A stretch of 17,914 bases of DNA from a virus (IMGVR_UViG_2565956631_000008); one strand, 5' to 3'. Shown: positions 1,612 to 17,914, counted from the stretch's first letter. Notes: a model not told the origin generated them from the letters alone. Numbers and translations are program-made.

Positions 1612-1629
1612 CGCTTATCTCTCAGCTCT

Positions 1630-2379: not shown

Positions 2380-2386
2380 ATCGTCC

Positions 2387-3312: not shown

Positions 3313-3327
3313 AATTTCCCCCTGCGT

Positions 3328-4048: not shown

Positions 4049-4099
4049 ATCAGCCCCCTGTGAAAAAAGACACGGGGGCATTTCGCCCCCGCTCACGGA

Positions 4100-5128
4100 T
4101 TATTTCACCTGTACCACCACAAACTCATCCGGGTCCGGCAACACCATCAGCGGCGCGGACTGCGTCATGGTAAATTCACGGGCGGGATCCCCTACCGTCA
4201 GCCAGTGTTTCGGATAACGGGAAGAGGCCACCACACCTTCGGACAACGCCTGAGCATCCTGAATGGCACCGTAACAACGGATCCCATCTGCAGCAGTATT
4301 CCCCAGAACCAGCATGCCATCTGGAAGATAACGTTTTTCGATACCGTCTTCTGCTATATAAGACGTTTTCGCCACCACAATGGCCAGATCGCCGTAATAC
4401 CCCTTGAAGGACACCACTGCGCCCAGATCTTTCACTGCCGTTTCGAGTTGAGAATTTGAACCGCGACGGGTATCCAGTTTTTCGCGGAACAGCTTAAAAC
4501 CATTCAGAAGACGCCAGCCGGTACCGTCCATAATGGCAATATTCACAAGACCGCTGGCCTGGTCGCAGTAGAGGTCAATATCATGTGTAGGATCGAACGT
4601 GTCACGATCCTGTTTTGACCACTCCTTACCACTACCCTGAGTGATGTTATTCTTCGTCGACCTGCCAAAATCGACCTCAATTTTCTCGAACTGGTCTCCT
4701 TCCATGGTGTATTTGCCATACAACACAGCATTTACCGCCTGCATTTCTTCCACCTGGACAATGGCGTGCTCTTCCTGTTTGAGGTTATCGGTAATGATAC
4801 GCAGACGGCGGTAAGCCGGATCATTCAGTTGAGATGGATCTTCACCAGGAAGGCGCTCAACCGCCTGCTGGTAATTAAATTCGTGTTTCGGCTTGACGTA
4901 GCCCGGACGCAACACGCGGGTTTCACCACCACGATGGCGCAGCACTTTTCCTTCAACGATCGGGGAGACATAGGCCGCCACCGGCGTTTTTCCGGTAATT
5001 TTGTCCAGCATCACCTCTTCGGTGTGGAAATTCACCGTACGGCGGAAAAACAGCTCCAGAAATAGCGCACGGAATTTAACTTTTTGTTCGGTATAACCGA
5101 GTAACTGGCGGGTCGTAAACAATCCCAT
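4100..5128 (-). CDS. E: Major capsid protein gpE
   Basis: 342 aa, MGLFTTRQLLGYTEQKVKFRALFLELFF...SAPLMVLPDPDEFVVVQVK; lambda gpE homolog over the full length. Confidence 0.96.
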   Translation of the reverse strand: MGLFTTRQLLGYTEQKVKFRALFLELFFRRTVNFHTEEVMLDKITGKTPVAAYVSPIVEGKVLRHRGGETRVLRPGYVKPKHEFNYQQAVERLPGEDPSQLNDPAYRRLRIITDNLKQEEHAIVQVEEMQAVNAVLYGKYTMEGDQFEKIEVDFGRSTKNNITQGSGKEWSKQDRDTFDPTHDIDLYCDQASGLVNIAIMDGTGWRLLNGFKLFREKLDTRRGSNSQLETAVKDLGAVVSFKGYYGDLAIVVAKTSYIAEDGIEKRYLPDGMLVLGNTAADGIRCYGAIQDAQALSEGVVASSRYPKHWLTVGDPAREFTMTQSAPLMVLPDPDEFVVVQVK

Positions 5129-5185
5129 AAATCAGTTCCTTTCATTCAGAAATCAGTCAGGCCACCATGGTGGCCTGATAACGTG

Positions 5186-5533
5186 TTACGGCAGAGCCGC
5201 GTGACTCAGGGCTGTGCCGGCAAAGGCATTTGCCTTTTTGTGTTCATCCACACTTTCAGGCCAGTGGATTGCCTCCGTCGCAAAGGTTCCCGACTTGTAA
5301 TACGTCAGCGCTGTCTCTGTGCCTTCAAGCGGCAGTACCAGTATGCCAACCGCACTACCGGCTTTCTGTCCATCCCAGACCACCAGTTTCCCGGTGGCTT
5401 CATCCAGCATCAGGGGCGTCAGAGCCGGTGTTGCGGAAGAAATCCCGCTGCTGCCTGTGGCGGTATGAGCCGGATCATTACCGGCAAAAATACGTACTTC
5501 CGCACGCTGTTCAGTGATGGTTTTCGTCACCAT
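5186..5533 (-). CDS. D: Head decoration protein gpD
   Basis: 115 aa containing NDPAHTATGSSGIS...PLMLDEATGKLVVWDG...GILVLP...YYKSGTF; lambda gpD homolog. Confidence 0.93.
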   Translation of the reverse strand: MVTKTITEQRAEVRIFAGNDPAHTATGSSGISSATPALTPLMLDEATGKLVVWDGQKAGSAVGILVLPLEGTETALTYYKSGTFATEAIHWPESVDEHKKANAFAGTALSHAALP

Positions 5534-5569
5534 TTTGTTAAAACCTCATATTGATGGTCAGCACTGACT

Positions 5570-6115
5570 TCATGGCATGGCCATGAGCATTTTCACGTCC
5601 GCATCACCGTCTGCTGACGTCTGTGACACGCCACCCCGCACCGCTGCCGGTGAATGATTCGCCATGAAATGTTCAAACAGGGCGGTTGTGGATGCAGAGA
5701 CCGGTTCGGCCTTACCTGATCCCGCAGCCAGCACAGCCCGGGCGTTCTCCACGGTCATTCCCGGGCAGGCCGCCAGTTTTTCAGCCTGCGCTTCTGCCCC
5801 TTTTGCCTCATCCAGGGCCATGATCTGATCACGAAGTGAGGGCCCGGCATCCGCCAGTGGTGCAGCCGCCAGTTGTTCACGACCGTTCGCTTCTTCACAC
5901 GCCATAATGCGATCGGCTTCACTCTGCGCGGATGCCACCGGCTGCTGCGGTGCCGCCGCGGCCAGAATCGCCCGGGCCTGTTCAACGCTCATGCCCTGTT
6001 GCCCTGCCAGCATCGTGGCAAGCTGTTCACGTCCTTTCGCTTCCTGGCATGTCAGGATCCCCATCACTCGCTGGTTCTCCTGCACGGCGGCTTCCGTTGC
6101 AGTTAATTGCGGCAT
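5570..6115 (-). CDS. Nu3: Scaffolding protein Nu3-like, in-frame internal start within C
   Basis: Internal ATG at 6113-6115 (MPQLTATEAAVQENQRVMGILTCQEAKGREQ...) is preceded by a GGAGG Shine-Dalgarno about 5 nt upstream; same nested C/Nu3 arrangement as lambda. Confidence 0.7.
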   Translation of the reverse strand: MPQLTATEAAVQENQRVMGILTCQEAKGREQLATMLAGQQGMSVEQARAILAAAAPQQPVASAQSEADRIMACEEANGREQLAAAPLADAGPSLRDQIMALDEAKGAEAQAEKLAACPGMTVENARAVLAAGSGKAEPVSASTTALFEHFMANHSPAAVRGGVSQTSADGDADVKMLMAMP

Positions 6116-7018
6116 AGTGCCTCCTCTGACATTACTGTTCAGCGCCGTGGCCATCACACTGATGGCATCCGACGCATTGATTAATTCATCCGCCAGCCCG
6201 GCCTCAATGCCGGACTGACCTTCAAAAACGGCGGCCTCTGTTCCCGTGACCGCATCCACAGACAACCCGGTATACATCGCCACTTTTTCGGCAAACATCC
6301 GGTGCGCCGCATCAATCCGCTGCTGCATGTCCTGGCGAACCTCTGCCGGCAACGCTTCAAACTGATTGCCATCCACCTTGTGCGCCCCGGCATAAATCAG
6401 CGTGATATCCACACCGGCCTGCGCCAGATGACCGGCATAGCTGACATGGCTCATCATCACGCCAATGGAGCCGATACGGGATGTCTGGGTAACCAGCCGT
6501 CGGGAGCAGGCCGACGCCAGCAGCATGGCTGCAGAACAGGCAGTGTCATTGCACAGTGCCCAGACCGGCTTCTGCTGACGGAGGCGGTAAATCATGTCAG
6601 CGCAGTCAAACGCGCCGGCGGCCTGCCCGCCCGGACTGTCAATGTCCAGCAGTACGCCCCGCACCTGGCTATCCGCCATTGCCTGCTGAAGACAGGCGAC
6701 AATGCCGTCATAGCCTGTCATTCCGGAAAATGGCCGCATACCGCCCAGCCGGTGCACCAGCGTGCCGGTCACCGGCAGTACAGCAATACCGTTCACCACC
6801 CGGTAAACACGGGCCGGTCGTTTACCTCCGGCCATGTACTCGTCCGTTTCAGCCAGCATTCCGGGAGCATCAAGCTGTACCTGTTGTTGTGGTACCGAAA
6901 GACTTGCTGCCCCTATCTCGCGCCCGAGCGCGCAAAAGAAAACCCGCGCATAGGCGGGCTCCAGAAGCAGCGGTTCATTGAATGCTGCGGCAATAATGTG
7001 TGAAAGATTACGTCTCAC
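5570..7018 (-). CDS. C: Head maturation protease / scaffold gpC (S49 peptidase family), GTG start
   Basis: 482 aa, (M)RRNLSHIIAAAFNEPLLLEPAYARVFFCALGREIG...; strong match to lambda gpC. The start codon is GTG, overlapping the last codons of B. Confidence 0.92.
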   Translation of the reverse strand: MRRNLSHIIAAAFNEPLLLEPAYARVFFCALGREIGAASLSVPQQQVQLDAPGMLAETDEYMAGGKRPARVYRVVNGIAVLPVTGTLVHRLGGMRPFSGMTGYDGIVACLQQAMADSQVRGVLLDIDSPGGQAAGAFDCADMIYRLRQQKPVWALCNDTACSAAMLLASACSRRLVTQTSRIGSIGVMMSHVSYAGHLAQAGVDITLIYAGAHKVDGNQFEALPAEVRQDMQQRIDAAHRMFAEKVAMYTGLSVDAVTGTEAAVFEGQSGIEAGLADELINASDAISVMATALNSNVRGGTMPQLTATEAAVQENQRVMGILTCQEAKGREQLATMLAGQQGMSVEQARAILAAAAPQQPVASAQSEADRIMACEEANGREQLAAAPLADAGPSLRDQIMALDEAKGAEAQAEKLAACPGMTVENARAVLAAGSGKAEPVSASTTALFEHFMANHSPAAVRGGVSQTSADGDADVKMLMAMP

Positions 7019-8600
7019 GTGGTGTTGTCTCCTCTTCCGGCCTGCGACTCTCCGCTATCTGCTGCTGATACGCCTGCGCTATCCACACCGGACGTGAGAG
7101 TCCGGCTTTTTCCCGCTCTGCAGATTCCCTGACCTGCTGGCGGAAAATGTCCTGATAATCCTCGCCCATCAGCGCCAGCTCTTTCTCATACGTGCTCAGT
7201 CCGGCCTCAATGCGCATCACTGATTCCTGAACCTCCTTGAGCCCGTCAATGGCCATTCTTCCGGCTCCAATCCACTCAGCCCGTGACCAGGCTGATCGCG
7301 CCTGATAAAAATCAAAACGTGCCCGTGGCGGACGAATAATCCCCCGAAGAAGTGCCTCTTCCAGCCAGCAGGAAAACATCTGCGTGGCCAGCCGGGACGC
7401 AATAAATTTTCGCCGCCCCATAAAATAGCGCCACGACTCATTGGCGGATGCGCGGGCACTTGAATAACTGACCTTCGAGTAATCACGGGACAACTGTTCG
7501 TAGGAAACGCCAAGACCGGCGGCGATATACCGCAGCAGCGCCTGTTCAAGCGCCGAAAATCCATTGTCTGAATCCTGCGCGGTCTGAAGTTTCAGATCAT
7601 CACCGGGGAAAAGGTGCGGAATTTTGACACCGCCCAGCGTCACGCTATTCGTGTCATACCAGGTGGAGAACTTATCCAGAATATTAATAAGCGGATTATC
7701 CTTCTGCCCCTGCGGCGCACCGGCGATATATTCAAAGGCCTTTTCGGTATCAAGGTCACTTTCAATCGTCGCTGCATACATCGCCTTCACTATGGCCGAC
7801 TGAAGCTGTGTTGCCTGCAGGGAATCGAGCATCTTCAGCCGTTCCATAACGCTGTAAAACTGATTAGCCCCACGGGTCTGCCCGTCCTCCACCGGCTCGA
7901 AAATATGCAGCATGGCCGGACGCCCGGTGGGAAGTTCACGCGGGATCCGTTCCCATCGTCCACTCCCGGAGAACGGAAAATCATCCTCACAGATATGGTA
8001 CGCAACGGCACGACCATATCGATCGACCTCCACCCCGGCCCGCAGAAAACGGTTCCCGATACCATGTCCTGGCGTGTCCACCCGTTTCGGACTCACGGCT
8101 TTAAAACGCGTACGAAACAGTTGCGTGCTCTCCGGATCCCAGACCGGCTGCACAAAGATTTCGCCGTTAAACGCATGAACGCCCACACCTTCACGAATAA
8201 ATTCTGTAAACGTGCGTTTCCCTTCCACGTCGATCTCGCCAAACACCCCTTCTGCGTATTCTGACCAGGCCGCCTCCACCTCATCGACAAAACTTTTTGT
8301 CGCGGTCTCCCGCATCCCCAACCAGCGCCAGTTCGGGCGGTAGCTGATAAGAAACATATGCCCGACAATGTGATCCTTATGCAGGGCCACCGCATTGGCC
8401 GCTATCCCGTTATTGCGCACCAGATCATCTGCCCGGGCATTCCCCAGACGCAACGCGGGCAGCAGGGCCGCATCGGCACTCTGCGCCGGTGGCAACCACT
8501 CCGCCATTTGCCCGCCAAATCCTGCGCCGCCCCCGTTGTAGCTGAGGCTCTCCCGAAGCGGAACGCCGTTCACATCAATCAGGACAGGCGTTCGTTTCAT
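7008..8600 (-). CDS. B: Portal protein gpB
   Basis: 530 aa, MKRTPVLIDVNGVPLRESLSYNGGGAGFGGQ...FEPVEDGQTRGANQFYSVMERLKMLDSLQATQLQSAIVKAMYAATIES...; lambda gpB homolog. Confidence 0.96.
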   Translation of the reverse strand: MKRTPVLIDVNGVPLRESLSYNGGGAGFGGQMAEWLPPAQSADAALLPALRLGNARADDLVRNNGIAANAVALHKDHIVGHMFLISYRPNWRWLGMRETATKSFVDEVEAAWSEYAEGVFGEIDVEGKRTFTEFIREGVGVHAFNGEIFVQPVWDPESTQLFRTRFKAVSPKRVDTPGHGIGNRFLRAGVEVDRYGRAVAYHICEDDFPFSGSGRWERIPRELPTGRPAMLHIFEPVEDGQTRGANQFYSVMERLKMLDSLQATQLQSAIVKAMYAATIESDLDTEKAFEYIAGAPQGQKDNPLINILDKFSTWYDTNSVTLGGVKIPHLFPGDDLKLQTAQDSDNGFSALEQALLRYIAAGLGVSYEQLSRDYSKVSYSSARASANESWRYFMGRRKFIASRLATQMFSCWLEEALLRGIIRPPRARFDFYQARSAWSRAEWIGAGRMAIDGLKEVQESVMRIEAGLSTYEKELALMGEDYQDIFRQQVRESAEREKAGLSRPVWIAQAYQQQIAESRRPEEETTPRET

Positions 8601-8803
8601 AACCTCACTCCCAGCGGACGACGGCGACGGCGGGTTGTCCCCAGTACCAACTCAGCATCATTGATCGCACGGTTAAGCTCATCCAGAGAGGCCGCCGTAT
8701 ATTCAATTCTTCGTCCATCTTTCTGGACAGACACCACCCGTTTACCGGTTAATAAATCAAGGCGCGCCTGACGCAGCGCCTGCAGTTCAGCGACTGTAAC
8801 CAT
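8597..8803 (-). CDS. W: Head-tail joining protein gpW
   Basis: 68 aa, MVTVAELQALRQARLDLLTGKRVVSVQKDGRRIEYTAASLDELNRAI...; same length as lambda gpW and clearly similar. Confidence 0.93.
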   Translation of the reverse strand: MVTVAELQALRQARLDLLTGKRVVSVQKDGRRIEYTAASLDELNRAINDAELVLGTTRRRRRPLGVRL

Positions 8804-10715
8804 TCACTCCTCCGGACAGCTTCGCTGCCAGTTCTTTAAGGGTTGGCCGGGTCGTCTCTTCTTCCCGGGATTTTGCCAGTACAGCCAGATCAAGCTGCCA
8901 GCGTTGCACGGACACACGTAATGCCGCGTAGGCATACACCAGGCAGTCCAGCGCTTCGTTACGCCGCTTTTTGTTATCCCACAGCAGACGCATCTTTCCT
9001 TTTTCCCACTTCTCCACAAGCTCTTCCGCGACCAGTTGCTGCGCCTCTGTCTGCGAAAAAATCTCCGGATCATCAGGAAAACGGATGGCATACGACGTGG
9101 CTTCATCCGCAGGCGTGGGCTCGGCTTTCATACGGGCATAGAGAATTTCTTTTGCGGTGTCCGTCCCCACTTCACACAGATAAACGCCCCGCTGATTGCG
9201 GGTTTTCGGCATGGTGATCACCGGCTTGCCATAGACAGACGCGCCTTTTACCGGCAGCACACGGAAAACACCGTGTTTTTTTGACCTCTGGTAGACGATT
9301 TCACCATCGATCCCCCCGGTGTCCCAGCAGACACGGGAAATGGTCATTTCGGTGCCATCCGCATGGCGGTATTTTTTGTTGATCGCCGCATCCACACGTA
9401 ACAGCGTCTCTTCCTCATCAGGACGCCCCATAATGATGATTTTATCCACCAGAAAAGCTTCCTCTCCCGGTGCCCATCCCCAGACATACATCTCAAAACG
9501 GTTTCGCTGCGAGTCAATGCCCGCCGTCAGATAAACCACCCGGGCAGGCACCGCCGCCGTGTAACGCACAACCTTATCCATCAGCACCTGGTGATCGAGT
9601 TTTTCGCCCACGGCCTCTTCCCAGGTCTCGCCCAGCGTGGTGTTCACAAAGGTTTTCAGGCCGTTGGGATCTTTCAGTGCATCCAGCCAGTCATAGACTA
9701 TCTGTACCCAGGTGGTGAACGGACTGTACGCTGTCCAGATATGGAACGTGATGGAGCGCGGCGGCGGAATTTCATTATCCGCGGCGCTGAAAAACGTCAG
9801 ACCGTCACGGGTCCACATCCCCGTGTTTTCACAGATCCACCGCCCGTTGCTCTGGTCAAGCTCAGACTGATGGATCACGCAGCCATGATGTTCACAGAGG
9901 TAGAAAACGCTTTCGGGGCTGTCCTTCTCCCATTTAAGGCCAAAAGGCGTGGATTCATCGCCAAATTTCAGATACTGCTCCTCCCCACAGTGTGGGCAGG
10001 GCACATAAAAACGCATGAAATGCGCCGACTCGTTGGCCGCTTTTTCGATCTGGCAGGTGCCTTTGATTTTAGGCGTCGAGCCGCGAATGGATTTGGGCCA
10101 TACAGAGCCCTCAATACGTTTATCCCCAAGCAGGGTTGGCGAACCCTCTTTTTCGACATCCGGTTCGAACGAGGAAAGTTCGTCATAGCAGACCACGTCC
10201 ACGGATTTTTCACGGTAGTTTTTGGCGGCAGCGCCGCCCAGGCACCAGAAACCCACACCCGATGAAAAGCGTTTCAGCGTGAGGGTATTGTCACGATGTT
10301 TACGCCCCAGCCATGGAAAAAGGTCTTTCAGACATGGCACATCCCGAATCGTCGCCTCCACGTGAGACTTCATAAAATCTTCAGCGGCAGAATCCGTGGG
10401 CTGAAAAAGCAGACTGTTTCGGGATTTATGCTCAATAAAATACCCGACCACCCCCAGCAACATCTTTGTATAGCCAACACGGGCAGATTTAATCAGATTA
10501 ACAGTCCGGATCTGATCATTCCCCATGCTGTTCATGATGGCGATCTGGAACGGCAGCGTTTTCCATTCTCCCTCACCATATGAAGATTCTTTAGGCAGAT
10601 AATAATTTTGATCAGCCCATTCAACTGGCGTCACCGGCAATGCCCTTATCAGGGGCTGTAATGCTGTTGTGACAGCACTCATCATATTATTCAGTTGTTG
10701 CTCTGATATATTCAT
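8787..10715 (-). CDS. A: Terminase large subunit gpA
   Basis: Start taken at MNISEQQLNNMM... (ATG 10713-10715); the ORF-track start at 10772 adds 19 codons with no lambda counterpart. Protein matches lambda gpA throughout (WADQNYYLPKESSYGEGEWKTLPFQ..., GSTPKIKGTCQIE..., CPHCGEEQYLKFGD...). Confidence 0.95.
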   Translation of the reverse strand: MNISEQQLNNMMSAVTTALQPLIRALPVTPVEWADQNYYLPKESSYGEGEWKTLPFQIAIMNSMGNDQIRTVNLIKSARVGYTKMLLGVVGYFIEHKSRNSLLFQPTDSAAEDFMKSHVEATIRDVPCLKDLFPWLGRKHRDNTLTLKRFSSGVGFWCLGGAAAKNYREKSVDVVCYDELSSFEPDVEKEGSPTLLGDKRIEGSVWPKSIRGSTPKIKGTCQIEKAANESAHFMRFYVPCPHCGEEQYLKFGDESTPFGLKWEKDSPESVFYLCEHHGCVIHQSELDQSNGRWICENTGMWTRDGLTFFSAADNEIPPPRSITFHIWTAYSPFTTWVQIVYDWLDALKDPNGLKTFVNTTLGETWEEAVGEKLDHQVLMDKVVRYTAAVPARVVYLTAGIDSQRNRFEMYVWGWAPGEEAFLVDKIIIMGRPDEEETLLRVDAAINKKYRHADGTEMTISRVCWDTGGIDGEIVYQRSKKHGVFRVLPVKGASVYGKPVITMPKTRNQRGVYLCEVGTDTAKEILYARMKAEPTPADEATSYAIRFPDDPEIFSQTEAQQLVAEELVEKWEKGKMRLLWDNKKRRNEALDCLVYAYAALRVSVQRWQLDLAVLAKSREEETTRPTLKELAAKLSGGVNGYSR

Positions 10716-11196
10716 CGAGTAAATCCGGTAATTTATCCCCCGCCCGCGCACACTGATTTGCCCCCTTCGCAATAAGGGTTTTCAGATGGTCAAGATGGCG
10801 CGGTGTTAAATCAGGAAACTGTCGCTGCATGGATAAAGGGATGGAATCAAGCGTACTGGATAACGCCATTGCCAGCTTGCTGAGGGCAAAAATACAGAAC
10901 CCGGTATCAATAAGTTTTCCTTTTGACACCTCATTTTTTAACTGCTGTGTAACAGCCTGTTCTGCTGTCAGTTCCCATCTGGCAATAAGCAATTTCTCCT
11001 CATAGTCGTCTTCGCTATCGCCATCAGGCACATCGTTTTTACTTCTTCTCAGATACGATATGTAAAAATCGCGCCAGGCATCCAGATCCAGTTGCCCTCG
11101 CTTATTCGATATCGGGGCACCCGGCAATTTCTGCAATCTGCGAAGCTGGCGATCGGTCAGACTTAAATGCCTGGCAACTTCAGTCTGCGTAGCCAC
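10687..11196 (-). CDS. nu1: Terminase small subunit gpNu1-like, GTG start
   Basis: 169 aa; C-terminal half (FCIFALSKLAMALSSTLDSIPLSMQRQFPDLTPRHLDHLK...LLDEYI) matches lambda Nu1, while the N-terminal HTH region (TQTEVARHLSLTDRQLRRL) is divergent. Overlaps A by 29 nt, lies immediately downstream of cos, and has a GAGG Shine-Dalgarno upstream. Confidence 0.9.
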   Translation of the reverse strand: MATQTEVARHLSLTDRQLRRLQKLPGAPISNKRGQLDLDAWRDFYISYLRRSKNDVPDGDSEDDYEEKLLIARWELTAEQAVTQQLKNEVSKGKLIDTGFCIFALSKLAMALSSTLDSIPLSMQRQFPDLTPRHLDHLKTLIAKGANQCARAGDKLPDLLDEYIRATTE

Positions 11197-11239
11197 TCCT
11201 CACCTCGCAAAAACTCTCACTTCACAATCACAACAAAAC

Positions 11240-11345
11240 CGGTCATGTCCGGCTTACATGTCTATTTTTTGTGCATGTCCGGTTCACAGAAGACCTCTTT
11301 TTTTATTTTTCATATAGTTAACTTGAAGAGAAACCGGACATGGTT
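11240..11345 (-). promoter_or_regulatory. cosB-like terminase binding region with three 9-bp CATGTCCGG / CCGGACATG repeats and an AT-rich spacer
   Basis: CATGTCCGG at 11244-11252 and 11274-11282, and its inverse CCGGACATG at 11334-11342, lie between cosN and the Nu1 start. The T/A-rich tract 11290-11330 could be an IHF-type bend site. Confidence 0.55.
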
Positions 11346-11379
11346 CCCGGAAAATTTTCATAAATAGCGAAAACCCGCG

Positions 11380-11391
11380 AGGTCGCCGCCC
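11380..11391 (-). other. cos: cosN, the 12-nt cohesive end GGGCGGCGACCT (read on the minus strand)
   Basis: Minus strand reads ...cgatccaacaggttacg GGGCGGCGACCT cgcgggttttcgctatttatgaaaattttccgg..., matching the lambda right-end/left-end junction as recalled; the match extends about 35 nt into the lambda left end. Confidence 0.9.
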
Positions 11392-11539
11392 CGTAACCTG
11401 TTGGATCGACGGAAAGGACCCGAAAACGAGAATAATTATCACTTACAGCAAGAATCGAATCTGATCTATTATGGTGCTTGCTATTATGTGCCGGCACAAG
11501 TGCGTCGTTTACCGTCATTTCACACAGAGGCATCATCAA

Positions 11540-11791
11540 ATGAAAATCAGAAATATTCTCGCTATCTCCCTTGCAACATCATCCTTCAGTTGCCTGGCAT
11601 TTAAATCCTCGCCCAATGTGCTACCAGGACCAACGAATCAACTAACTGCGGTAGAAAGTAAAATTATCGGACATTTTTATGCCCCACACAGTGCATTACC
11701 CGGAACAACCATCACAGGGACATGTGACGCCTCCCCCGTCCCGGGATGCACCTGTCCGTTTTGTACTATGCTGCGTAGCCAAAACCGATAA
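11540..11791 (+). CDS. Small secreted cysteine-rich protein (Sec signal peptide), function unknown
   Basis: Internal ATG at 11540 of the 11471..11791 ORF, with GAGG about 9 nt upstream. N-terminus MKIRNILAISLATSSFSCLA has a signal-peptide n/h/c layout; the predicted mature ~63 aa carries 4 Cys (TGTCDASPVPGCTCPFC). Opposite strand to the late operon. Confidence 0.5.
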   Translation: MKIRNILAISLATSSFSCLAFKSSPNVLPGPTNQLTAVESKIIGHFYAPHSALPGTTITGTCDASPVPGCTCPFCTMLRSQNR

Positions 11792-11852
11792 CATCCGCAT
11801 TTACCTGGTATTACATGATGAGTTCACGCAGCGACTGATAGAGGAAGGAAAG

Positions 11853-12032
11853 ATGGTTAGTAAAAGCAAGGCGCATTGCCGCCGCATGCTGCAGGCATTG
11901 CAACAGACGAGAGCAGGTATTTTTGACCAGTTGGAAAACTGCCAGCATACTTTGCCCGAGTATATCGCCATCTCATCGGAAACCAGTGCAACTCTTATTC
12001 ATCGGGTTCCACCAGAGAAAAAGAAGAAATGA
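11853..12032 (+). CDS. Small hypothetical protein (59 aa) with strong RBS
   Basis: ATG at 11853 preceded by GAGGAAGGAAAG; MVSKSKAHCRRMLQALQQTRAGIFDQLENCQHTLPEYIAISSETSATLIHRVPPEKKKK. The longer ORF-track frame (from 11679) overlaps the upstream gene and lacks an RBS. Confidence 0.45.
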   Translation: MVSKSKAHCRRMLQALQQTRAGIFDQLENCQHTLPEYIAISSETSATLIHRVPPEKKKK

Positions 12033-12037
12033 ACAGT

Positions 12038-12062
12038 GAGGCGTTGTGTGGCATACAACGCC
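12038..12062. terminator. Perfect 9-bp hairpin between convergent genes; probable bidirectional terminator
   Basis: AGGCGTTGT-gtggcat-ACAACGCCT starts 6 nt after the stop of the plus-strand 59-aa ORF and is followed by TCTTCC; on the minus strand it is followed by a CATTTCTTCTTTTTCTC tract. Confidence 0.5.
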
Positions 12063-12154
12063 TTCTTCCATCATTCCTCGTCAGCCATGACAAAAATATA
12101 ACCGCTGGCTCTTTCATTTTTCTCCTGCGTCCAGCCCCTCTCTACCTGGAAGCA

Positions 12155-12481
12155 TCAAGGACGTGACGGCGTAAAGATAAATTGTCTCTTCACTCCCTGA
12201 CAGGGGCGATTCTTTTCAAATCGCCATTTCGCCATGGCCTTCACCACTTCATCACGAAACAAATTATGAGGCTCTGAGCGGAGAAAAACGATCCGTGTCA
12301 CAGTCCCATCAGCACCAATATCGAACTTAACCTCAACCAGCCCCTTGATATAATTTGCTGCAGCATATTCCGGATATCGTGGATACACCGTCACTAATTG
12401 CCGGGGCTCATCAGCTTTTTGCTGCGAGCATCCCACTGCCAGGACAGATAACAGAAAAAGTAGTAAAAGGCGTCTTTTCAT
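12155..12481 (-). CDS. Lipoprotein with TonB C-terminal-domain-like fold
   Basis: Start at MKRRLLLLFLLSVLAVGCSQ (ATG 12479-12481, AGGA 7 nt upstream): signal peptide plus lipobox-like AVGC. Remainder ...VYPRYPEYAAANYIKGLVEVKFDIGADGTVTRIVFLRSEPHNLFRDEVVKAMAKWRFE aligns with the E. coli TonB C-terminal domain (YP..A.A..I.G.V.VKFD...DG.V...S.P...F..EV..AM..WR.EP). Confidence 0.7.
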   Translation of the reverse strand: MKRRLLLLFLLSVLAVGCSQQKADEPRQLVTVYPRYPEYAAANYIKGLVEVKFDIGADGTVTRIVFLRSEPHNLFRDEVVKAMAKWRFEKNRPCQGVKRQFIFTPSRP

Positions 12482-12791
12482 TTTTATTCCTACGGGTCTT
12501 ATTCTGACAATATATCCTGTGTTCCAGACTGCCACATCACCACATCCTGTGCCATTATCTGACTCACATTACATACATCGCATCGGGATACAGTAGTAGC
12601 ACTTTCTGTAATACAGCTTCCTGTTTCTTCCACCATCGCACCGGGATAAACCCGCGAATCATTAACGCGGTAAAAACCCGGTGTGCATCGTTTTTAATTA
12701 TCCCCGCACACTCGCGCAGAGGAGTCTCCCTGTCGGGCTGCGGTCTCTGTTAATGAGGGAATATAGCGACGATACGGCGCATCAACAAAAC

Positions 12792-13265
12792 TTATTTCAG
12801 GCACTGAGTGCGGATATAGTCCTGTGCCCCTTCCAGTTGCTTGTGCATCGTCATCAGCCGCTCTCTGAGGGTGAAATAATCCCGTGTAACGGTGTCTGCC
12901 AGTTGGGGGCCGGTTGCATTATCCACGCCGGAGGTGGTGGGGGCTTCACGCACGGAGCCTGGACAGGTGGCGTTGATCCGCAGGCGCTTACGACCAGCGG
13001 CAACGTCAGCGCGAAGAGTTTCATTTTCAGCTCTCGCATCGGCTAATTCCCTCGAGTATTTTGCATCGAGCGCAGCAACATCGCGCTGGCGCACCTGCAT
13101 ATCAGTAATGGTTGCGTTCGCCAGCTTCAGTTCACTGGCTTTGTTATCGCGCTGCGCTTTGTAGGTAATCGCGTTATCACGGTAATGGTCTGTTGCCATC
13201 CACAGCGCACCACAGGCCACCAGCAGAATAACGATAAACGCGGAAAGCATTCGGTTTATGTTCAC
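12792..13265 (-). CDS. Rz: Spanin inner-membrane subunit Rz (i-spanin)
   Basis: ...[55 protein letters not shown]...[18 protein letters not shown]...; near-identical to lambda Rz. The ORF-track start is GTG (13263-13265) overlapping the stop of the upstream small ORF as GTGA; an alternative ATG lies at 13248-13250. Confidence 0.93.
12854..13039 (-). CDS. Rz1: Spanin outer-membrane lipoprotein subunit Rz1 (o-spanin), embedded in Rz in the +1 frame
   Basis: [59 protein letters not shown]; lipobox plus proline-rich core, near-identical to lambda Rz1 and wholly inside Rz in a different frame. Confidence 0.9.
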
Positions 13266-13393
13266 CCCAGCAACCCCGACGAAGACAACATCATCCAGGC
13301 CATGGAAAGAAAAAGAGCAACCAGCATTAGTGAAAATGAAATGCCGACAATTACACAGAGGATCTTCGCCAGCGTTATGAGTTTGTCTGACAT
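13262..13393 (-). CDS. Small single-pass membrane protein (43 aa), function unknown
   Basis: Internal ATG at 13391-13393 preceded by GGGAGG 8 nt upstream; [43 protein letters not shown] has one hydrophobic helix. Its TGA stop overlaps the Rz GTG start. Confidence 0.5.
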
Positions 13394-13407
13394 GCTTAAT
13401 CCTCCCT

Positions 13408-13554
13408 TCACGATTTCAACGCAATGACCAGTTTTGCCAGCCCATACAGCATCGGGGACACAGCAACACCGACCGCCACCCACTTAATGGCAAAAGCCAG
13501 TGCTCTGCTGATGTCATCAGTTACAGGCGCTTTCAGTTCAAGGCCATTTTTCAT
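13408..13554 (-). CDS. Small protein with C-terminal transmembrane segment (48 aa), function unknown
   Basis: ATG at 13552-13554 with GAGG 6 nt upstream; [48 protein letters not shown]. An alternative start at 13590 (MAKCKR...) is possible. The stop lies 14 nt before the next small ORF. Confidence 0.4.
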
Positions 13555-13746
13555 AGTCAACCTCAACAGAATTCGTTTACACTTCGCCATGTTCTCCCTT
13601 GCCTTACTCAAGGTCAGAAACACAAAACCTCGCTTGGTGCCAACAAACGGGGTTTTTACTTTTATTCACTTACGTTTCGCCAGTTCGCAGGATTTCGTGT
13701 TATCCGCCCGCGTGGCCATTCCTCATTTTTCAGCAAAATATTCTGC

Positions 13747-14280
13747 TTATCTGTCGATACCCCAGCACGCCAGCGCGCTCTCCTGGTCACGACGGGATAC
13801 CTGACCGTAACAGTTGTTTGAACGAATACGGCAGTCTCTGCCACCGTCCTTAATCCACCAGCGAATCGCTTCGCAGGCACCTTTTCGATCACCAGCATTA
13901 ATTCGTCTGTAAAACGTCGACGGGAAACACTTACCGGGACCAATGTTGTACGGACAGAATGACGCGATCCCCGCTTTCTGGGGTTCGGTCAGCGGCACTC
14001 TGATGTTTTTCTCCACCCACGCCAGCGCTTTATCACGCTCAATGGCGTTAACCTGGTCGCATTTTTCCTTCGACAACTTCATGCCCGGAACGACAGGTTT
14101 GCCATCCACCATGATGGCACCACGGCAGATGGTCCAGATACCTGCACCATCACGGTATGCCGTGGTGTGGTTGCCTTCCTTTTCATCCAGAAACTGGTCG
14201 AGAATGTCAGGCGCAGGCGCACCAGCGGCAATCAGCGCCAGAACGGCAGCCGACAGGCCGTATTTGATTTTGGTGTTCAT
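13747..14280 (-). CDS. R: SAR endolysin (T4-lysozyme-like muramidase, GH24) with N-terminal signal-anchor-release domain
   Basis: 177 aa; N-terminal Gly/Ala-rich weakly hydrophobic segment YGLSAAVLALIAAGAPAP, then EGNHTTAYRDGAGIWT giving the E-x8-D-x5-T catalytic spacing typical of phage 21 and P1 type SAR lysozymes. Confidence 0.9.
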   Translation of the reverse strand: MNTKIKYGLSAAVLALIAAGAPAPDILDQFLDEKEGNHTTAYRDGAGIWTICRGAIMVDGKPVVPGMKLSKEKCDQVNAIERDKALAWVEKNIRVPLTEPQKAGIASFCPYNIGPGKCFPSTFYRRINAGDRKGACEAIRWWIKDGGRDCRIRSNNCYGQVSRRDQESALACWGIDR

Positions 14281-14316
14281 GGATATATTAAATATTCAGC
14301 CGCTGTCCCTGGCCCA

Positions 14317-15207
14317 CTAAATACGCACTTTAAGATAAGTCAGCCCCGGATGAAGCCAGTAAGCCGGCCCTTTTTTAAAGGGTGGAGTATTAAAATCACG
14401 AAGAAGAGCCTCCCGCACAATTGCATCCTTATCAGCACCACTGGCCAGCGCTTCAATCTCAGCGGCTACCTGAAGATATCCCATGCAACGGCCAACGCGC
14501 TTCATCAGCCCCTGCTTTTTATTGTTCTTCAGGTAATCAATGGCAAATTCAATGAGCTCCTCACTGTGCTGGTGCGATGGAGGTGTTACTTTCCCATTTT
14601 CTGAGATGGTTATTTTCCCAGCATCACCGGATACAACAAAGGATGGCCGGTTACACTCCCATTCCGGGTCACTGAAATTATCATTATGAATACTGAAACA
14701 CTCTGCGAGATTTCTGCTCATCACTTTCCGACAATAATCGTCAAACGCAGCAAACTGCTTTTCATCGCCAGAAGGCACCAATATCGACCATTTCTTATTC
14801 AGCTCAACGACGTAGCTCTCCAGTTTTTCAATACGTGATTCAACATCATCTTTTTCTGACCGCAGTGTTGACGGCGGCATCTTCAGAGAACAAGTAATTC
14901 TTCCCGGTAGCTTTCCTTTGTAGGTTATCAACACATCCTGCGCCTCTAAAATTACGGGGCGCTTTTCCGGCAACGGTTCGTTCCATTCACATAACCCGGC
15001 AGCAACATCCATGAAAAACTGCTTCGCCTGCTTTTTCGCCTCAGCTTCGTAAAACTCCAGCGTGGCACCTTCAGTACGGTCAAGACTAATCGCCACATCT
15101 GGCAACAACAGCGACGCTTGCCCGTCACCTTCCGACTTCACAGTAACAGTAACCTTATCCCCGTAATTATTTATCCCCTTAACAACCAGTTCATATTTTT
15201 TATTCAT
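14317..15207 (-). CDS. Uncharacterised 296-aa protein inserted between holin and endolysin
   Basis: Long ORF with ATG at 15205-15207, 4 nt after the holin stop, and a GGAGAG Shine-Dalgarno upstream; MNKKYELVVKGINNYGDKVTVTVKSEGDGQ.... No TM segment, signal peptide or catalytic motif I can recognise. GC looks lower by eye than the flanking late genes. Confidence 0.75.
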   Translation of the reverse strand: MNKKYELVVKGINNYGDKVTVTVKSEGDGQASLLLPDVAISLDRTEGATLEFYEAEAKKQAKQFFMDVAAGLCEWNEPLPEKRPVILEAQDVLITYKGKLPGRITCSLKMPPSTLRSEKDDVESRIEKLESYVVELNKKWSILVPSGDEKQFAAFDDYCRKVMSRNLAECFSIHNDNFSDPEWECNRPSFVVSGDAGKITISENGKVTPPSHQHSEELIEFAIDYLKNNKKQGLMKRVGRCMGYLQVAAEIEALASGADKDAIVREALLRDFNTPPFKKGPAYWLHPGLTYLKVRI

Positions 15208-15211
15208 CACT

Positions 15212-15427
15212 TTACTCTCCCCGCGCCGCCTTACGCCGGTCCTCTTTGATTTTGAAATACAGGTTAGTCAGATATGTCAGCAGCCCAAACAGCAGACTCC
15301 CCAGCACGCCTATTGCCGCCCACTGAGACGGGGAAACCCTGTCCAGCAACTGCAGGAACCAGTAGCCCGTTCCCACCGCTGACGTGGTGTATGACACACC
15401 TGTTGTGATTTTTTCCATCTGGTACAT
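15212..15427 (-). CDS. S: Class II pinholin (phage 21 S-like) with dual-start motif
   Basis: [71 protein letters not shown] (71 aa), near-identical to phage 21 S / E. coli EssD-type holins as recalled. Two in-frame Met codons (15427 and 15418) give antiholin and holin forms; GGGAG Shine-Dalgarno upstream. The ORF-track start at 15532 is an over-extension. Confidence 0.92.
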
Positions 15428-15459
15428 ACCCCGTCTCCCGTTATCCGGAAGCTGACAAC

Positions 15460-15491
15460 AATAAAAAAGCCACCAGTTAAGTACTGATGGC
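15460..15491 (-). terminator. Rho-independent terminator-like hairpin about 30 nt upstream of the holin start
   Basis: Minus strand: GCCATCAG-tacttaa-CTGGTGGC (8-bp stem with one G.U pair) followed by TTTTTTATTGTTG. Confidence 0.55.
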
Positions 15492-15734
15492 TCTGATAAC
15501 TCATGCAGGCGTCTCAGACGACCCACTGACACTACCGGTGAGTTTAACGATACCTTCCATTTGACTGGCTCACTTTTTATGATGATGCCGGTGCATTTAT
15601 CTCCAGCACCAGACTTTCTATCTCAACGCCATACGTTGCATTTTTGGTAATATCCGTCAGCGTCAGTGCATTTAGTCCCACTGCCAGACCGTCTTTTATG
15701 GCCTGGAATGCCGGGCCAGTACGATGACGTAGTA

Positions 15735-15938
15735 TCACTCCGGCTCAGTTGCACCACTGACCACCACATCACCTTCTGCTGCAATCGCCTGCATCAGGGT
15801 ATAAGGGGTTATGGCCACCGGACTACCAAACGGCTGCCAGCCCTCTTTCAGTTTATGTGTCAGCTTTTCCGCAAGATCTGACGGCGACGCCGCCCTGACA
15901 ACATCATAGTGTTTAAATGCCATGGTTCTTTCCACCAT
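15735..15938 (-). CDS. Small conserved prophage protein upstream of the holin (possibly DUF1737 family)
   Basis: 67-aa ORF MVERTMAFKHYDVVRAASPSDLAEKLTHKLKEGWQPFGSPVAITPYTLMQAIAAEGDVVVSG; the start may instead be the internal ATG at 15923 (MAFKHYD...). The family assignment is from memory and not verified. Confidence 0.55.
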   Translation of the reverse strand: MVERTMAFKHYDVVRAASPSDLAEKLTHKLKEGWQPFGSPVAITPYTLMQAIAAEGDVVVSGATEPE

Positions 15939-16183
15939 CTGAAAAATGATTCTTTAAAATACCTGACATGTAATACAGAAAAAACACAAAACCATACCTT
16001 AAATAAAAACCTCATCATCAAGCAGATATGCATGGATAAACTACAAGACGAGATATAAACCACCCTGCATTTAAATAAACAATAAACAACATCAGAAAAA
16101 TAATTCTGCTCTATGGTTTACAATCAAAAATATCATTTATACTTTTCAGAACATCACCAGCAAGGCATAAACAAGGAAACTAA

Positions 16184-16519
16184 ATGAAGTGGATTGTGAT
16201 TGATACAGTTATCCAGCCATCATGCGGAATATCTTTTTCAGTCATATGGAGTAAAATAAAATTAATAATCTGGTATCAATCGGATGCTTTCTTACCTCCT
16301 GAAAGTATATTTACACTGACTCACACAGGTATCATGCTCAATAACAAAGTGCTACCTGTAACCATTTACAACGTAGTACCATTCAATAAAACATTCTGGA
16401 ATTTAATCAAAAACAGCCAGGAATGCCCTACAAATACAGATAACGTATTGAATGAATGCTTTAATAACCGTTGCACTCTGCAAATATGTCCTTATGGGCT
16501 AAAACAACAAAGTCCATAA
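16184..16519 (+). CDS. Hypothetical 111-aa protein in an AT-rich island, opposite strand to the late operon
   Basis: 111 codons without a stop in clearly AT-rich DNA, which is unlikely by chance; AAGGAA Shine-Dalgarno 6 nt upstream of the [46 protein letters not shown]...[15 protein letters not shown]; no homolog recognised. Confidence 0.5.
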
Positions 16520-16539
16520 GGAGTTTACTCACATCTGAC

Positions 16540-16562
16540 AAAATCAATATAAACAGCCCCTC
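16540..16562. terminator. Perfect 9-bp GC-rich hairpin; likely terminator, mainly minus-strand
   Basis: CAGCCCCTC-cgga-GAGGGGCTG lies 20 nt after the stop of the plus-strand ORF. On the minus strand it is followed by TTTATATTGATTTTGT; on the plus strand there is no U-tract. Confidence 0.5.
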
Positions 16563-16770
16563 CGGAGAGGGGCTGGAGAGTGGCGCTATGTGCCATTGCA
16601 TGGTGCCGGGTGCCTCCCGGTGAATTCAGTACCAGCACCTGAATCCGCGATTATCCCATATACCTACTCGCTGATTGCCCCTCCGCACAGGGGGATTCAC
16701 CATGCCAGTTTCTTTTAACAAACTCCCCGCAAAACAGACAACTGTCAACCGTCTGAATTGTGAGACATTT

Positions 16771-16795
16771 AAAAAAAGGCCCGCAAAAGCGAGCC
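16771..16795 (-). terminator. Rho-independent terminator just downstream of the tRNA cluster
   Basis: Minus strand: GGCTCGC-tttt-GCGGGCC (one G.U pair) followed by TTTTTTTAAATG, starting about 15 nt after the 3' CCA of the last tRNA. Confidence 0.6.
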
Positions 16796-16809
16796 GGGAA
16801 AAATAAGTC

Positions 16810-16886
16810 TGGCGCGTTGTACTGGATTCGAACCAGTGACCGATTGCTTAGAAGGCAATTGCTCTGTCCGGTTGAGCTAACAACGC
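16810..16886 (-). tRNA. argO: tRNA-Arg, anticodon UCU (reads AGA)
   Basis: Hand-folded 77-nt cloverleaf from the minus strand: acceptor GCGTTGT/ACAACGC, D-stem GCTC/GAGC, anticodon stem ATTGC/GCAAT with loop CTTCTAA, T-arm ACTGG-TTCGAATC-CAGT, discriminator G, encoded CCA. Resembles E. coli argU. The gene symbol follows the ileZ-argN-argO order of Stx phages and is tentative. Confidence 0.8.
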
Positions 16887-16899
16887 AGGGTACAGATAA

Positions 16900-16976
16900 T
16901 GGACCGCCATCGAGGACTCGAACCCCGCGCAACCAGCTTCGAAGGCTGGCGCTCTATCCTGATGAGCTAATGGCGG
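16900..16976 (-). tRNA. argN: tRNA-Arg, anticodon UCG (reads CGA/CGG)
   Basis: Hand-folded cloverleaf: acceptor CCGCCAT/ATGGCGG, D-stem GCTC/GAGC, anticodon stem CCAGC/GCTGG with loop CTTCGAA, T-loop TTCGAGT, encoded CCA. The C1 start and U discriminator are unusual, so the ends may be off by a base. Gene symbol tentative. Confidence 0.7.
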
Positions 16977-16983
16977 TATGTGA

Positions 16984-17059
16984 TGGTGGCCCTTGCTGGA
17001 TTTGAACCAGCGACCTGGCGATTATGAGTCGCTCGCTCTCACCACTGAGCTAAAGGGCC
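16984..17059 (-). tRNA. ileZ: tRNA-Ile2 (anticodon CAU, presumably lysidine-modified; formally could be Met)
   Basis: 76 nt, GGCCCTTTAGCTCAGTGGTGAGAGCGAGCGACTCATAATCGCCAGGTCGCTGGTTCAAATCCAGCAAGGGCCACCA; roughly 90% identical by eye to E. coli ileX as recalled. Confidence 0.8.
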
Positions 17060-17068
17060 GGGAGCCGC

Positions 17069-17097
17069 ATAATAACGACGCGTAATTAATTCTTCAA
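17069..17097 (-). promoter_or_regulatory. Putative sigma70 promoter for the tRNA cluster
   Basis: Minus strand: TTGAAG (-35), 17-nt spacer, TATTAT (-10), ending 9 nt before the mature 5' end of the first tRNA. Confidence 0.4.
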
Positions 17098-17099
17098 TA

Positions 17100-17378
17100 T
17101 CATCCGTTCTGGCTGACTAAATCCTGTACTTCCCGAACCGTCTGCTCAAAACGTTCAGTCTCCAGCTCAACGCCAATTGCACGACGCCCGAGCGCCAGTG
17201 CCGCTTTCACTGTCGAACCCGACCCCATGAAAAAATCTGCAATCAGGTCACCCGGACGACTGCTAGCGCTGATTATCTGCTGCAGCATTTCTGCCGGTTT
17301 TTCGCACGGATGTTTCCCGGGATAGAACTGCACCGGTTTATGCGTCCAGACATCGGTATACGGCACCTGCGCCGTCAC
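17100..17378 (-). pseudogene. 5'-truncated remnant of a beta-class N6/N4 DNA methyltransferase (C-terminal ~90 aa only)
   Basis: ...KPVQFYPGKHPCEKPAEMLQQIISASSRPGDLIADFFMGSGSTVKAALALGRRAIGVELETERF... carries the HPxxKP and FxGxG(S/T) AdoMet-binding motifs of the N6_N4 MTase family. The upstream in-frame region runs straight into the tR' hairpin with no ATG, so the catalytic DPPY half is absent. Confidence 0.65.
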
Positions 17379-17433
17379 GCCAAAATACCGCCGCAGTCGG
17401 CATTCACAACCACCAGCGCATTTAACGTTCAGC

Positions 17434-17462
17434 CATAAAAAAACCCGCTCGCGGCGGGTTTA
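17434..17462 (-). terminator. tR'-like rho-independent terminator downstream of Q
   Basis: Minus strand: AAACCCGC-cgcga-GCGGGTTT (perfect 8-bp stem) followed by TTTTTTTATGG, about 70 nt downstream of the Q stop. Confidence 0.75.
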
Positions 17463-17529
17463 AGCTGTGTGGCGAAGTAACCACTCTTAACATACTGACA
17501 TACTTTTTGCGGACCGCACTAATCATTTT

Positions 17530-17910
17530 TTACTTTTTTAGCAGCCAGTCGTCCATCTCCAGTCTTACCCCCAGCACAGACAAACATCCGTCAATAAACC
17601 CTTCGGCTATCTGCATCTCAATTCGTATTGCTTTTTCGCTTTTCTTTCTCGTCCTGGCTATCTGTCTTTTTGATATTCGCAACAAATAATGAGCAATGAG
17701 AAGCGAATACTCCTCAGGTTTTTTCTGCTTCAGACGAGCAAGACAGTTTTCAATGATAAGTCCGTCATCATCGCAGCAGGCCGGACGTGGTTTAGTGGCA
17801 GATGGTAAAAGTCCTTTGAATCCGGCAGCGATCGGAGAATAGTCCACCCCGGTGTTACCACTTGCAGCCCATGCCCCCCAGCGTTCAAGAACCATCTGAA
17901 TATCACGCAT
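17530..17910 (-). CDS. Q: Late-gene antiterminator Q (Q21/QuuD-type)
   Basis: MRDIQMVLERWGAWAASGNTGVDYSPIAAGFKGLLPSATKPRPACCDDDGLIIENCLARLKQ...; recognised from memory as the E. coli prophage Q/QuuD family (about 127 aa). The start lies 4 nt from the window edge, so the RBS is not visible and a longer N-terminus cannot be excluded. Confidence 0.8.
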   Translation of the reverse strand: MRDIQMVLERWGAWAASGNTGVDYSPIAAGFKGLLPSATKPRPACCDDDGLIIENCLARLKQKKPEEYSLLIAHYLLRISKRQIARTRKKSEKAIRIEMQIAEGFIDGCLSVLGVRLEMDDWLLKK

Positions 17911-17914
17911 CAAC

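Follow-up and report, generated by a model that had tools for sequence, protein, structure and literature searches.

A 933W-type ileZ-argN-argO tRNA cassette at an empty stx2 site in the late operon of a lambda-like Escherichia coli prophage

The Stx2 phage 933W (NC_000924) provides the reference for the locus described here, since its record annotates pT, ileZ, argN, argO and a terminator in the same order as in the window, i.e. the whole stretch of 17,914 nucleotides of viral DNA (IMGVR_UViG_2565956631_000008) that was analysed. Window and 933W have in common the three tRNAs and their order, the -10 hexamer, the 17-nt spacing and the distance to tRNA position +1. They also share a homologous terminator and the same location between Q/tR' and the lysis genes. 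The cassette was reportedly described along with the 933W genome. By every trait compared at the sequence level, the window locus can be assigned to the 933W-type ileZ-argN-argO cassettes. Differences were nevertheless recorded. In the window, stx2AB is missing behind the terminator (a difference of 1335 bp), the -35 hexamer is TTGAAG instead of TTGCAG, and argO displays A37 and A15 where 933W displays G37 and G15. The Q gene of the window is of another type, only 76% identical to that of 933W over about 100 nt, and the methylase gene upstream of the cassette is truncated, unlike in 933W.

Two non-Stx relatives also carry the cassette, together with the truncated methylase gene and Q: Escherichia phage PhiR49_2 (PV340570), at 99.7% identity, and a prophage of E. 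coli JNEC-KY173, at 100% identity. Neither of them has stx. In PhiR49_2, STnc100 is followed almost directly by the holin gene, whereas the window has iraM and a nanS-p remnant in between. The JNEC-KY173 prophage is without iraM and has an HK97-type head module, in contrast to the window with its iraM, nanS-p remnant and lambda-type head module.

Three further systems are comparable in part. The minor tRNAs of E. coli K-12, ileX/ileY (Ile2, anticodon CAU) and argU (UCU), have the same anticodons and read the same codons as ileZ and argO, but the phage genes form a cluster behind one promoter in a prophage late operon. Phage 'morons', as defined by Hendrix and colleagues, are additional genes that bring a promoter and a terminator along and lie between conserved phage genes. 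The cassette resembles them in having both signals, in being inserted between conserved late modules and in behaving as a unit in mosaic recombination; it differs by its cargo, which consists of three tRNAs and no protein gene. Finally, in the tRNA clusters of T4 and other virulent phages, and in the codon-compensation model for phage tRNA genes (Bailly-Bechet et al. 2007, PMC1987346, as it is cited in PMC7946995), the tRNAs fit codons that the phage uses more than its host, as was also observed in the window. In contrast to T4-type clusters, however, the window belongs to a temperate phage whose tRNA set is fixed and limited to three.

The whole window corresponds to the late region of a lambda-like prophage transcribed on the minus strand, which holds Q, the tRNA cassette, the holin, the lysozyme and the structural genes. 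In order of transcription, Q is followed by a tR'-like terminator, a methyltransferase remnant, the tRNA cassette, STnc100, an iraM-like gene (on the opposite strand), nanS-p remnants and a P21-type holin. Next come a 297-aa DUF1327 protein, the lysozyme and Rz/Rz1, and 3' of these the lambda-type terminase, portal, protease, major capsid and major tail genes. The features that matter here are listed below from right to left.

17530..17913, minus strand: late antiterminator gene Q (Pfam PF06530, 177 bits, full length; annotated as Q in the near-identical PhiR49_2)
17461..17441, minus strand: tR'-like intrinsic terminator 3' of Q (scan; fold of -12.6 kcal/mol; placed relative to Q as in 933W)
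17100..17378, minus strand: DNA methyltransferase remnant, C-terminal 92 aa, between tR' and pT (Pfam PF01555, profile positions 137-220 of 221)
17097..17069, minus strand: pT, putative sigma-70-type promoter, TTGAAG-17-TATTAT (consensus scan; homology to 933W pT)
16984..17059, minus strand: ileZ, tRNA-Ile2 type, anticodon CAU, CCA encoded (ARAGORN; Rfam 72.5 bits, E 2e-14)
16900..16976, minus strand: argN, tRNA-Arg(UCG), CCA encoded (ARAGORN; Rfam 56.0 bits, E 6e-10)
16810..16886, minus strand: argO, tRNA-Arg(UCU), CCA encoded (ARAGORN; Rfam 70.1 bits, E 8e-14)
16795..16778, with a U7 tail to 16771, minus strand: hairpin of the cassette intrinsic terminator, directly 3' of argO (scan; fold; 933W homology)
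16768..16771, no strand: empty stx site, the junction where 933W has 1335 extra bases with stx2A and stx2B (blastn blocks; 933W annotation)
16545..16734, minus strand: STnc100 sRNA gene, next in line behind the tRNA terminator (Rfam RF02076, 133.6 bits; gathering score 47)
16184..16519, plus strand: iraM-like anti-adapter gene (NCBIfam NF007393, 162 bits against a cutoff of 121; PGAP on homologues)
15577..15938, minus strand: two small ORFs that are remnants of a nanS-p esterase gene, a DUF1737 N-terminus and a C-terminal fragment (tblastn, Pfam DUF1737)
15212..15427, minus strand: holin S, start of the lysis cassette (Pfam PF04971, 111 bits)
13747..14280, minus strand: lysozyme

The tR'-like terminator would halt transcripts from the late promoter in the absence of Q. 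According to PGAP, a homologue of the methyltransferase remnant lacks its N-terminus, while complete genes of 1050 bp occur in related prophages. The STnc100 match spans model positions 1-206 of 206 in Rfam, and this gene has its own terminator (16575..16554, -24.7 kcal/mol). No Pfam match was obtained for the iraM-like ORF, which was identified through NCBIfam. When 933W NanS-p was compared with the window by tblastn, residues 1-88 were found at E = 3e-17 and residues 610-640 at E = 1e-3. Over positions 1-17396 the best complete genomes are 99.4% identical to the window, and PhiR49_2 is 99.7% identical to its right end, so the window is a mosaic of known modules.

In the 17.9-kb window, ARAGORN detected exactly three tRNA genes, and the minus strand carries all of them. 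By transcription (right to left) their anticodons are CAU, UCG and UCU, and the genes are separated by spacers of 7 and 13 nt. All three are full-length with intact cloverleaves, and all score well above the gathering score of the Rfam tRNA model (29 bits). The span 16810-17097 reaches from the 3' end of argO to the -35 hexamer. The first-pass annotation had folded these tRNAs by hand, named the same anticodons, and recognised in them the Stx-phage trio lying between Q/tR' and the lysis genes. ARAGORN, with which Rfam agrees, returned the same anticodons, identities to the 933W genes were 100% (ileZ), 96.1% (argN) and 97.4% (argO), and the scan and Pfam matches confirmed the location as well as the orientation, which is that of the flanking genes. 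The hand identification was thus accurate, although the feature itself was already known.

The CAU-bearing tRNA had been proposed to be of the Ile2 type, and its body sustains this assignment: ileZ is 89.5% identical to K-12 ileX and 70% identical to K-12 metT. A clear distinction was observed in the acceptor stem, where ileZ (GGCCCUU...AAGGGCC) has the C4-G69 and C5-G68 pairs of ileX (GGCCCCU...AGGGGCC), while metT (GGCUACG) has U4 and A5. These two pairs are said to be the discriminators by which TilS is kept from acting on tRNA-Met. Homologues of ileZ are likewise labelled tRNA-Ile by PGAP. As its sequence lies nearer ileX than metT, the CAU tRNA is an Ile2-type and not an elongator Met tRNA, with lysidine at C34 and reading of AUA presumed. 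The "Met" label given to ileZ by ARAGORN reflects the anticodon alone.

The two arginine tRNAs are more remote from host genes, argN and argO being only about 71-73% identical to host argU (71% for argO). The first pair of argN is C1-G72 and is accompanied by U73; its exact sequence in the window is also the intact argN variant encountered most often in the IMG/VR loci sampled. It is expected to read CGA and CGG. The tRNA-Arg anticodons known from K-12 are ACG (four times), CCG, UCU and CCU, and UCG is absent, in agreement with the first-pass annotation. The expected codons of argO are AGA and AGG. Its window copy displays A15 instead of the usual G15, a state found in 3 of 59 loci that could weaken the 15-48 tertiary pair. 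In seven loci, the T stem of argO shows compensatory double changes (ACUGG/CCAGU to AGUGG/CCACU), and such changes in related copies argue for selection on structure. More than 20 sampled loci carry a degenerate argN; because all loci were picked by an exact match to the ileZ core, the frequency of ileZ decay cannot be read from them.

The promoter pT matches 9 of 12 consensus positions, and its -10 hexamer ends 9 nt before tRNA position +1, from which it is separated by a G+C-rich stretch (GCGGCTCCC). A promoter scan of the region found four such sites against 4.3 expected from shuffled sequences, i.e. no excess over chance. The scan was therefore rejected as stand-alone evidence for pT, and other evidence was required. 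Such evidence came from homology, the 29-nt 933W feature "pT; putative tRNA promoter" aligning column for column with window pT; in 933W the element reads TTGCAG-17-TATTAT and is also located 9 nt from tRNA +1. It came further from conservation among 120 IMG/VR loci containing an exact match to the ileZ core: TATTAT was kept in 26 of 32 distinct upstream 50-mers, together with the TTG of the -35 hexamer at 17-nt spacing. Sequences 5' of pT fall into at least four unrelated contexts, namely the 3' end of a methylase gene, a tR' hairpin abutting the -35 hexamer, and two others. In the Stx2a phage Sp5, the primary start site of the homologous promoter was mapped by dRNA-seq (PMC7547250). A promoter sequence homologous to the annotated pT is thus present in the window, where its function is putative. 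Its G+C-rich discriminator is typical of stable-RNA promoters and suggests stringent control.

At the other end of the cassette, the terminator (GGCUCGC-UUUU-GCGGGCC) consists of a 7-bp stem with a UUUU loop followed by seven U. Its fold of -14 kcal/mol has a z score of -2.9, and 1 of 200 shuffled sequences folds as well. It is homologous to the 933W [quoted passage not shown], with which its columns coincide. The hairpin was kept in 23 of 24 distinct downstream sequences, whether stx2, STnc100 or another sequence comes next. Loci are homologous from roughly the -35 hexamer to the T-run of the terminator, and the flanks vary. Since these elements are kept while their surroundings change, the unit of conservation and of mosaic exchange is the promoter, the tRNAs and the terminator together, which at the sequence level is the pattern of a moron. 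The first-pass annotation had proposed that the trio is served by its own promoter and terminator. Both signals are indeed present, conserved and homologous to those of 933W, but they are no new observation, as both already stand in the 933W record.

The boundary behind this terminator is sharp. A first blastn block pairs window positions 17210-16772 with positions 1970-2409 of the 933W locus, up to the T-run of the terminator, and a second one pairs 16767-16597 with 3745-3926, where STnc100 starts. The gap between the tRNA terminator and STnc100 therefore amounts to 4 nt in the window versus 1335 bp with stx2AB in 933W. Tblastn searches of the window with the 933W toxin subunits gave best E values of 1.2 (Stx2A) and 0.16 (Stx2B), in agreement with the absence of toxin genes noticed earlier. 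The accompanying idea, that the toxin slot holds a different cargo, did not hold: the blocks flanking stx2AB in 933W lie 4 nt apart in the window, so the slot is empty. As judged by its sequence, the window is an empty-site allele of the stx2 locus and not the genome of an Stx-converting phage.

Candidates for a stx replacement were considered among the neighbouring features. STnc100 is located just 3' of stx2B in 933W, iraM is found together with stx2 in some Stx2a phages (including one IMG/VR locus), and nanS-p is the usual gene 3' of stx2. STnc100, iraM and the DUF1737 ORF were all rejected in this role, as they are situated past the insertion point and accompany stx2 in some phages. STnc100, iraM and the nanS-p remnant are thus backbone features and no toxin substitutes.

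The cassette is already known and very common, being carried by over half of the complete E. coli genomes and by most E. coli that harbour lambdoid prophages. The 331-bp cassette matched 3061 of 5426 such genomes, with at least 80% query coverage in 2290, and occurred in up to 13 places per genome. Among the sampled loci the commonest tRNA arrangement was the trio (56 loci), followed by ileZ-argO (26) and ileZ-Lys-Thr-Gly (13). Among the 59 IMG/VR loci having at least 3 kb of downstream sequence, stx2AB was found in only 4, and the commonest downstream class (13 loci) had the gene order of the window (STnc100, iraM, nanS-p/DUF1737, holin, YdfR-like). A trio without toxin is therefore the norm, contrary to the first impression that it was unusual.

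Codon usage was compared between 25 window genes (4797 codons) and 40 K-12 genes lying in a single 50-kb region (14283 codons). Frequencies of the codons cognate to the three tRNAs were as follows.

ATA: 9.2 per 1000 in the window, 3.5 per 1000 in the K-12 sample
AGA: 6.7 per 1000 in the window, 1.1 per 1000 in the K-12 sample
AGG: 3.8 per 1000 in the window, 0.6 per 1000 in the K-12 sample
CGA: 5.6 per 1000 in the window, 2.9 per 1000 in the K-12 sample
CGG: 15.2 per 1000 in the window, 5.3 per 1000 in the K-12 sample
Five cognate codons summed: 40.4 per 1000 in the window, 13.4 per 1000 in the K-12 sample

Ordered by window/host ratio among the 61 sense codons, AGA ranked 1, AGG 2, CGG 3, ATA 4 and CGA 6, so the match between these tRNAs and phage codon usage that had been suggested for checking was indeed found. 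Other host-rare codons showed no such enrichment (CCC had a ratio of 1.24, and CTA was depleted at 0.42), and the codon match to the three tRNAs is specific. The host sample is small; genome-wide, the five codons sum to about 17-19 per 1000 in K-12, and even against these values the window still displays an at least two-fold excess.

The load is unevenly distributed among window genes. Accessory, lysis and regulatory genes carried the highest one (50.1 per 1000), whereas the major capsid and decoration genes, which encode the most abundant virion proteins, avoid the five codons (6-9 per 1000). Small cargo ORFs are rich in ATA alone; iraM, for instance, has 6 ATA in 110 codons and no CGA or CGG. 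In structural genes, the five-codon load was 36.7 per 1000 in the window and 30.7 in the lambda homologues, with CGG at 17.6 and 16.0, respectively. Lambda carries no tRNA genes and yet has nearly the same bias, so the tRNAs are not needed for such a bias. The expectation that phages carrying tRNA genes have a distinctly stronger rare-codon bias than lambda was unsupported for structural genes.

We consider it probable that, in a lambda-like E. coli prophage, pT-ileZ-argN-argO-terminator forms a self-contained cassette for tRNA expression; within the late operon it has Q/pR'/tR' on one side and the lysis genes on the other. In the lysogenic state, RNA polymerase would start at pT with a predicted leader of 2-3 nt (only for the Sp5 homologue has a start site been shown), transcribe the three tRNAs and stop at the cassette terminator, leaving the downstream genes silent. 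As the cassette is oriented like the late operon, it would also be read through in lytic growth: Q-modified polymerase from pR' would pass both tR' and the cassette terminator, and the tRNAs would then also be released from the long late RNA by RNase P cleavage and trimming of their 3' ends. The mature tRNAs may add decoding of AUA (ileZ, with lysidine introduced by TilS), CGA/CGG (argN) and AGA/AGG (argO). With these cognate codons over-used by phage genes relative to the host, the extra tRNAs should speed translation of phage genes and of prophage-borne accessory genes.

Several other readings were weighed against this one. Were pT a mere chance match, the tRNAs would be made only from Q-antiterminated pR' transcripts in lytic growth. 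The number of sites obtained from shuffled sequences and the match of just 9 of 12 positions are what this predicts, but the -10 and -35 hexamers and their 17-nt spacing persist across unrelated upstream contexts, 933W annotates the site as pT, and the primary start site of its homologue was mapped (PMC7547250), which together make the absence of a separate promoter very unlikely. Persistence by linkage alone, the tRNAs being relics of captured host DNA or remnants of a tRNA attachment site, appears highly improbable. It has precedents, since tRNA genes were taken as markers of a captured region (PMC7366253) and as traces of integration sites (bioRxiv 10.64898/2026.05.13.724894); the identity of ileZ to host ileX fits an ancient capture, and lambda manages without tRNA genes. 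Yet the genes sit midway in the late operon and not at a prophage end, a position on which the attachment-site interpretation was rejected, and the three tRNAs are full-length with intact cloverleaves and encoded CCA. The promoter and terminator were moreover kept amid varying surroundings, stems show compensatory changes, and argN and argO are far from argU in sequence, a UCG tRNA-Arg being absent from K-12 according to established knowledge.

Lysogenic conversion deserves tentative consideration as a possible, if less than likely, account: the cassette would be a constitutive moron serving the host, to which it supplies more rare-codon tRNAs for AT-rich acquired virulence and stress genes, including iraM. 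It overlaps with the expression-cassette reading and differs from it only in the beneficiary. Conservation of the cassette as a unit with its own promoter and terminator is consistent with it, as are the detection of the start site in mostly lysogenic cultures (PMC7547250), the occurrence in 3061 of 5426 genomes at up to 13 places per genome, the many copies residing in prophages with decayed genes (truncated methylases, pseudogenes), and the codon load, which is highest in accessory, lysis and regulatory genes and includes the AUA codons of iraM. The number of lambdoid prophages per genome explains the copy number equally well, however, and argN is degenerate in a number of sampled loci. An outright host-reprogramming module seems unlikely. 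Here, constitutive pT expression from repressed or decayed prophages would, at a dosage of 1 to 13 places per genome, set the translation of acquired genes rich in AUA, AGR and CGR codons, among them that of the RpoS-stabiliser IraM; in a related form, the cassette would buffer against tRNA-Arg-cleaving toxins. Conservation, copy number and codon counts form the basis of both versions. Colicin D is known to cut tRNA-Arg, and tRNA genes of virulent phages have been proposed as replacements for cleaved host tRNAs. By analogy, prophage tRNAs might stand in for host tRNAs that anticodon nucleases, tRNA-targeting toxins or tRNA-cleaving defence systems have cut or depleted. The trio includes two Arg isoacceptors, and the argO anticodon loop of 933W, with G37, differs from the host type. 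In the window, however, the argO loop (CUUCUAA) is that of host argU and offers no obvious escape from an argU-cutting nuclease. As the loci examined showed no linkage of the cassette to a defence or nuclease gene, and codon-usage match is the simpler account, a counter-defence role is extremely doubtful.

As a discovery, the self-contained tRNA expression cassette is of little weight, since the cassette, its putative promoter and its terminator are already found in the 933W reference annotation. The clean boundary right behind the tRNA terminator nevertheless shows where toxin genes enter or leave such phages. As for the tRNAs themselves, comparison with lambda presents them as an optional boost rather than a requirement.

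The late region of the window displayed several further features around its tRNA cassette:

12155-12535, minus strand: 126-aa ORF downstream of Rz, lipoprotein-like at its N-terminus and carrying a TonB C-terminal domain
14317-15210, minus strand: 297-aa protein with a DUF1327 (YdfR-type) N-terminus, between holin and lysozyme
15577-15938, minus strand: nanS-p remnant (a DUF1737 ORF, then a 53-aa ORF), matching the NanS-p esterase of the Stx2 phage 933W
16184-16519, plus strand, against the direction of the late operon: gene for an iraM-like anti-adapter, scoring 162 bits with NCBIfam NF007393
16545-16734, minus strand: full-length STnc100 sRNA gene (Rfam, 133.6 bits)
17100-17378, minus strand: remnant of a DNA methyltransferase gene between tR' and pT, reduced to the C-terminal 92 codons

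The window is a mosaic. Positions 1-17396 matched, at 99.4% identity, a prophage found in ST69-type strains; the tRNA region of that prophage is unlike that of the window. Positions 16598-17914 displayed 99.7% identity to phage PhiR49_2. The whole window was not seen at such identity in any complete E. coli genome of the collection searched. The truncation of the methyltransferase gene, which is complete (1050 bp) in related prophages, is shared with PhiR49_2 and E. coli strain JNEC-KY173. A second remnant lies at 15577-15938, where the DUF1737 ORF corresponds to residues 1-88 of 933W NanS-p and the 53-aa ORF to residues 610-640. The two ORFs are both ends of a single nanS-p gene from which some 520 internal codons have been lost.

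The 297-aa protein is far longer than the YdfR of about 116 aa found at the same place in related phages, and its match to PHROG 1085 spans the entire protein. The 126-aa ORF occupies roughly the position where bor is frequently found in lambda-like phages. The iraM-like gene is AT-rich (AUA makes up 6 of its 110 codons, CGA and CGG none), and no Pfam model matched its ORF.

STnc100 begins some 40 nt downstream of the tRNA terminator and carries a strong terminator of its own (16575..16554, -24.7 kcal/mol). In 933W, this sRNA gene lies directly 3' of stx2B and adjoins the anti-sRNA AsxR, which is absent from the window.

The argO of the window (16810-16886, minus strand) has A15, as in 3 of 59 loci, instead of the G15 of most copies (the main type accounted for 36). 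In the anticodon loop, the argO of 933W (positions 2296-2372 of locus L005) displays G37 rather than A37, and a compensatory double change in the argO T-stem was recorded in 7 loci. In many related prophages (more than 20 IMG/VR loci, and about 5990-6110 of the related prophage locus L003), argN is replaced by an argN-derived sequence of 80-81 nt. Its acceptor arm is kept, as is the T arm in one variant, and its anticodon arm is substituted. Neither ARAGORN nor PGAP called this sequence a tRNA, which accounts for the common 'ileZ-argO' arrangement. An identical ileZ core was also followed by other tRNAs among the IMG/VR loci, namely Lys(UUU)-Thr(UGU)-Gly(UCC) (13 loci), argO-Thr-Gly (6) and Lys-argO (2). 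Since one ileZ core thus precedes differing tRNA sets, ileZ and its promoter look like a fixed head behind which the tRNA cargo is exchangeable.
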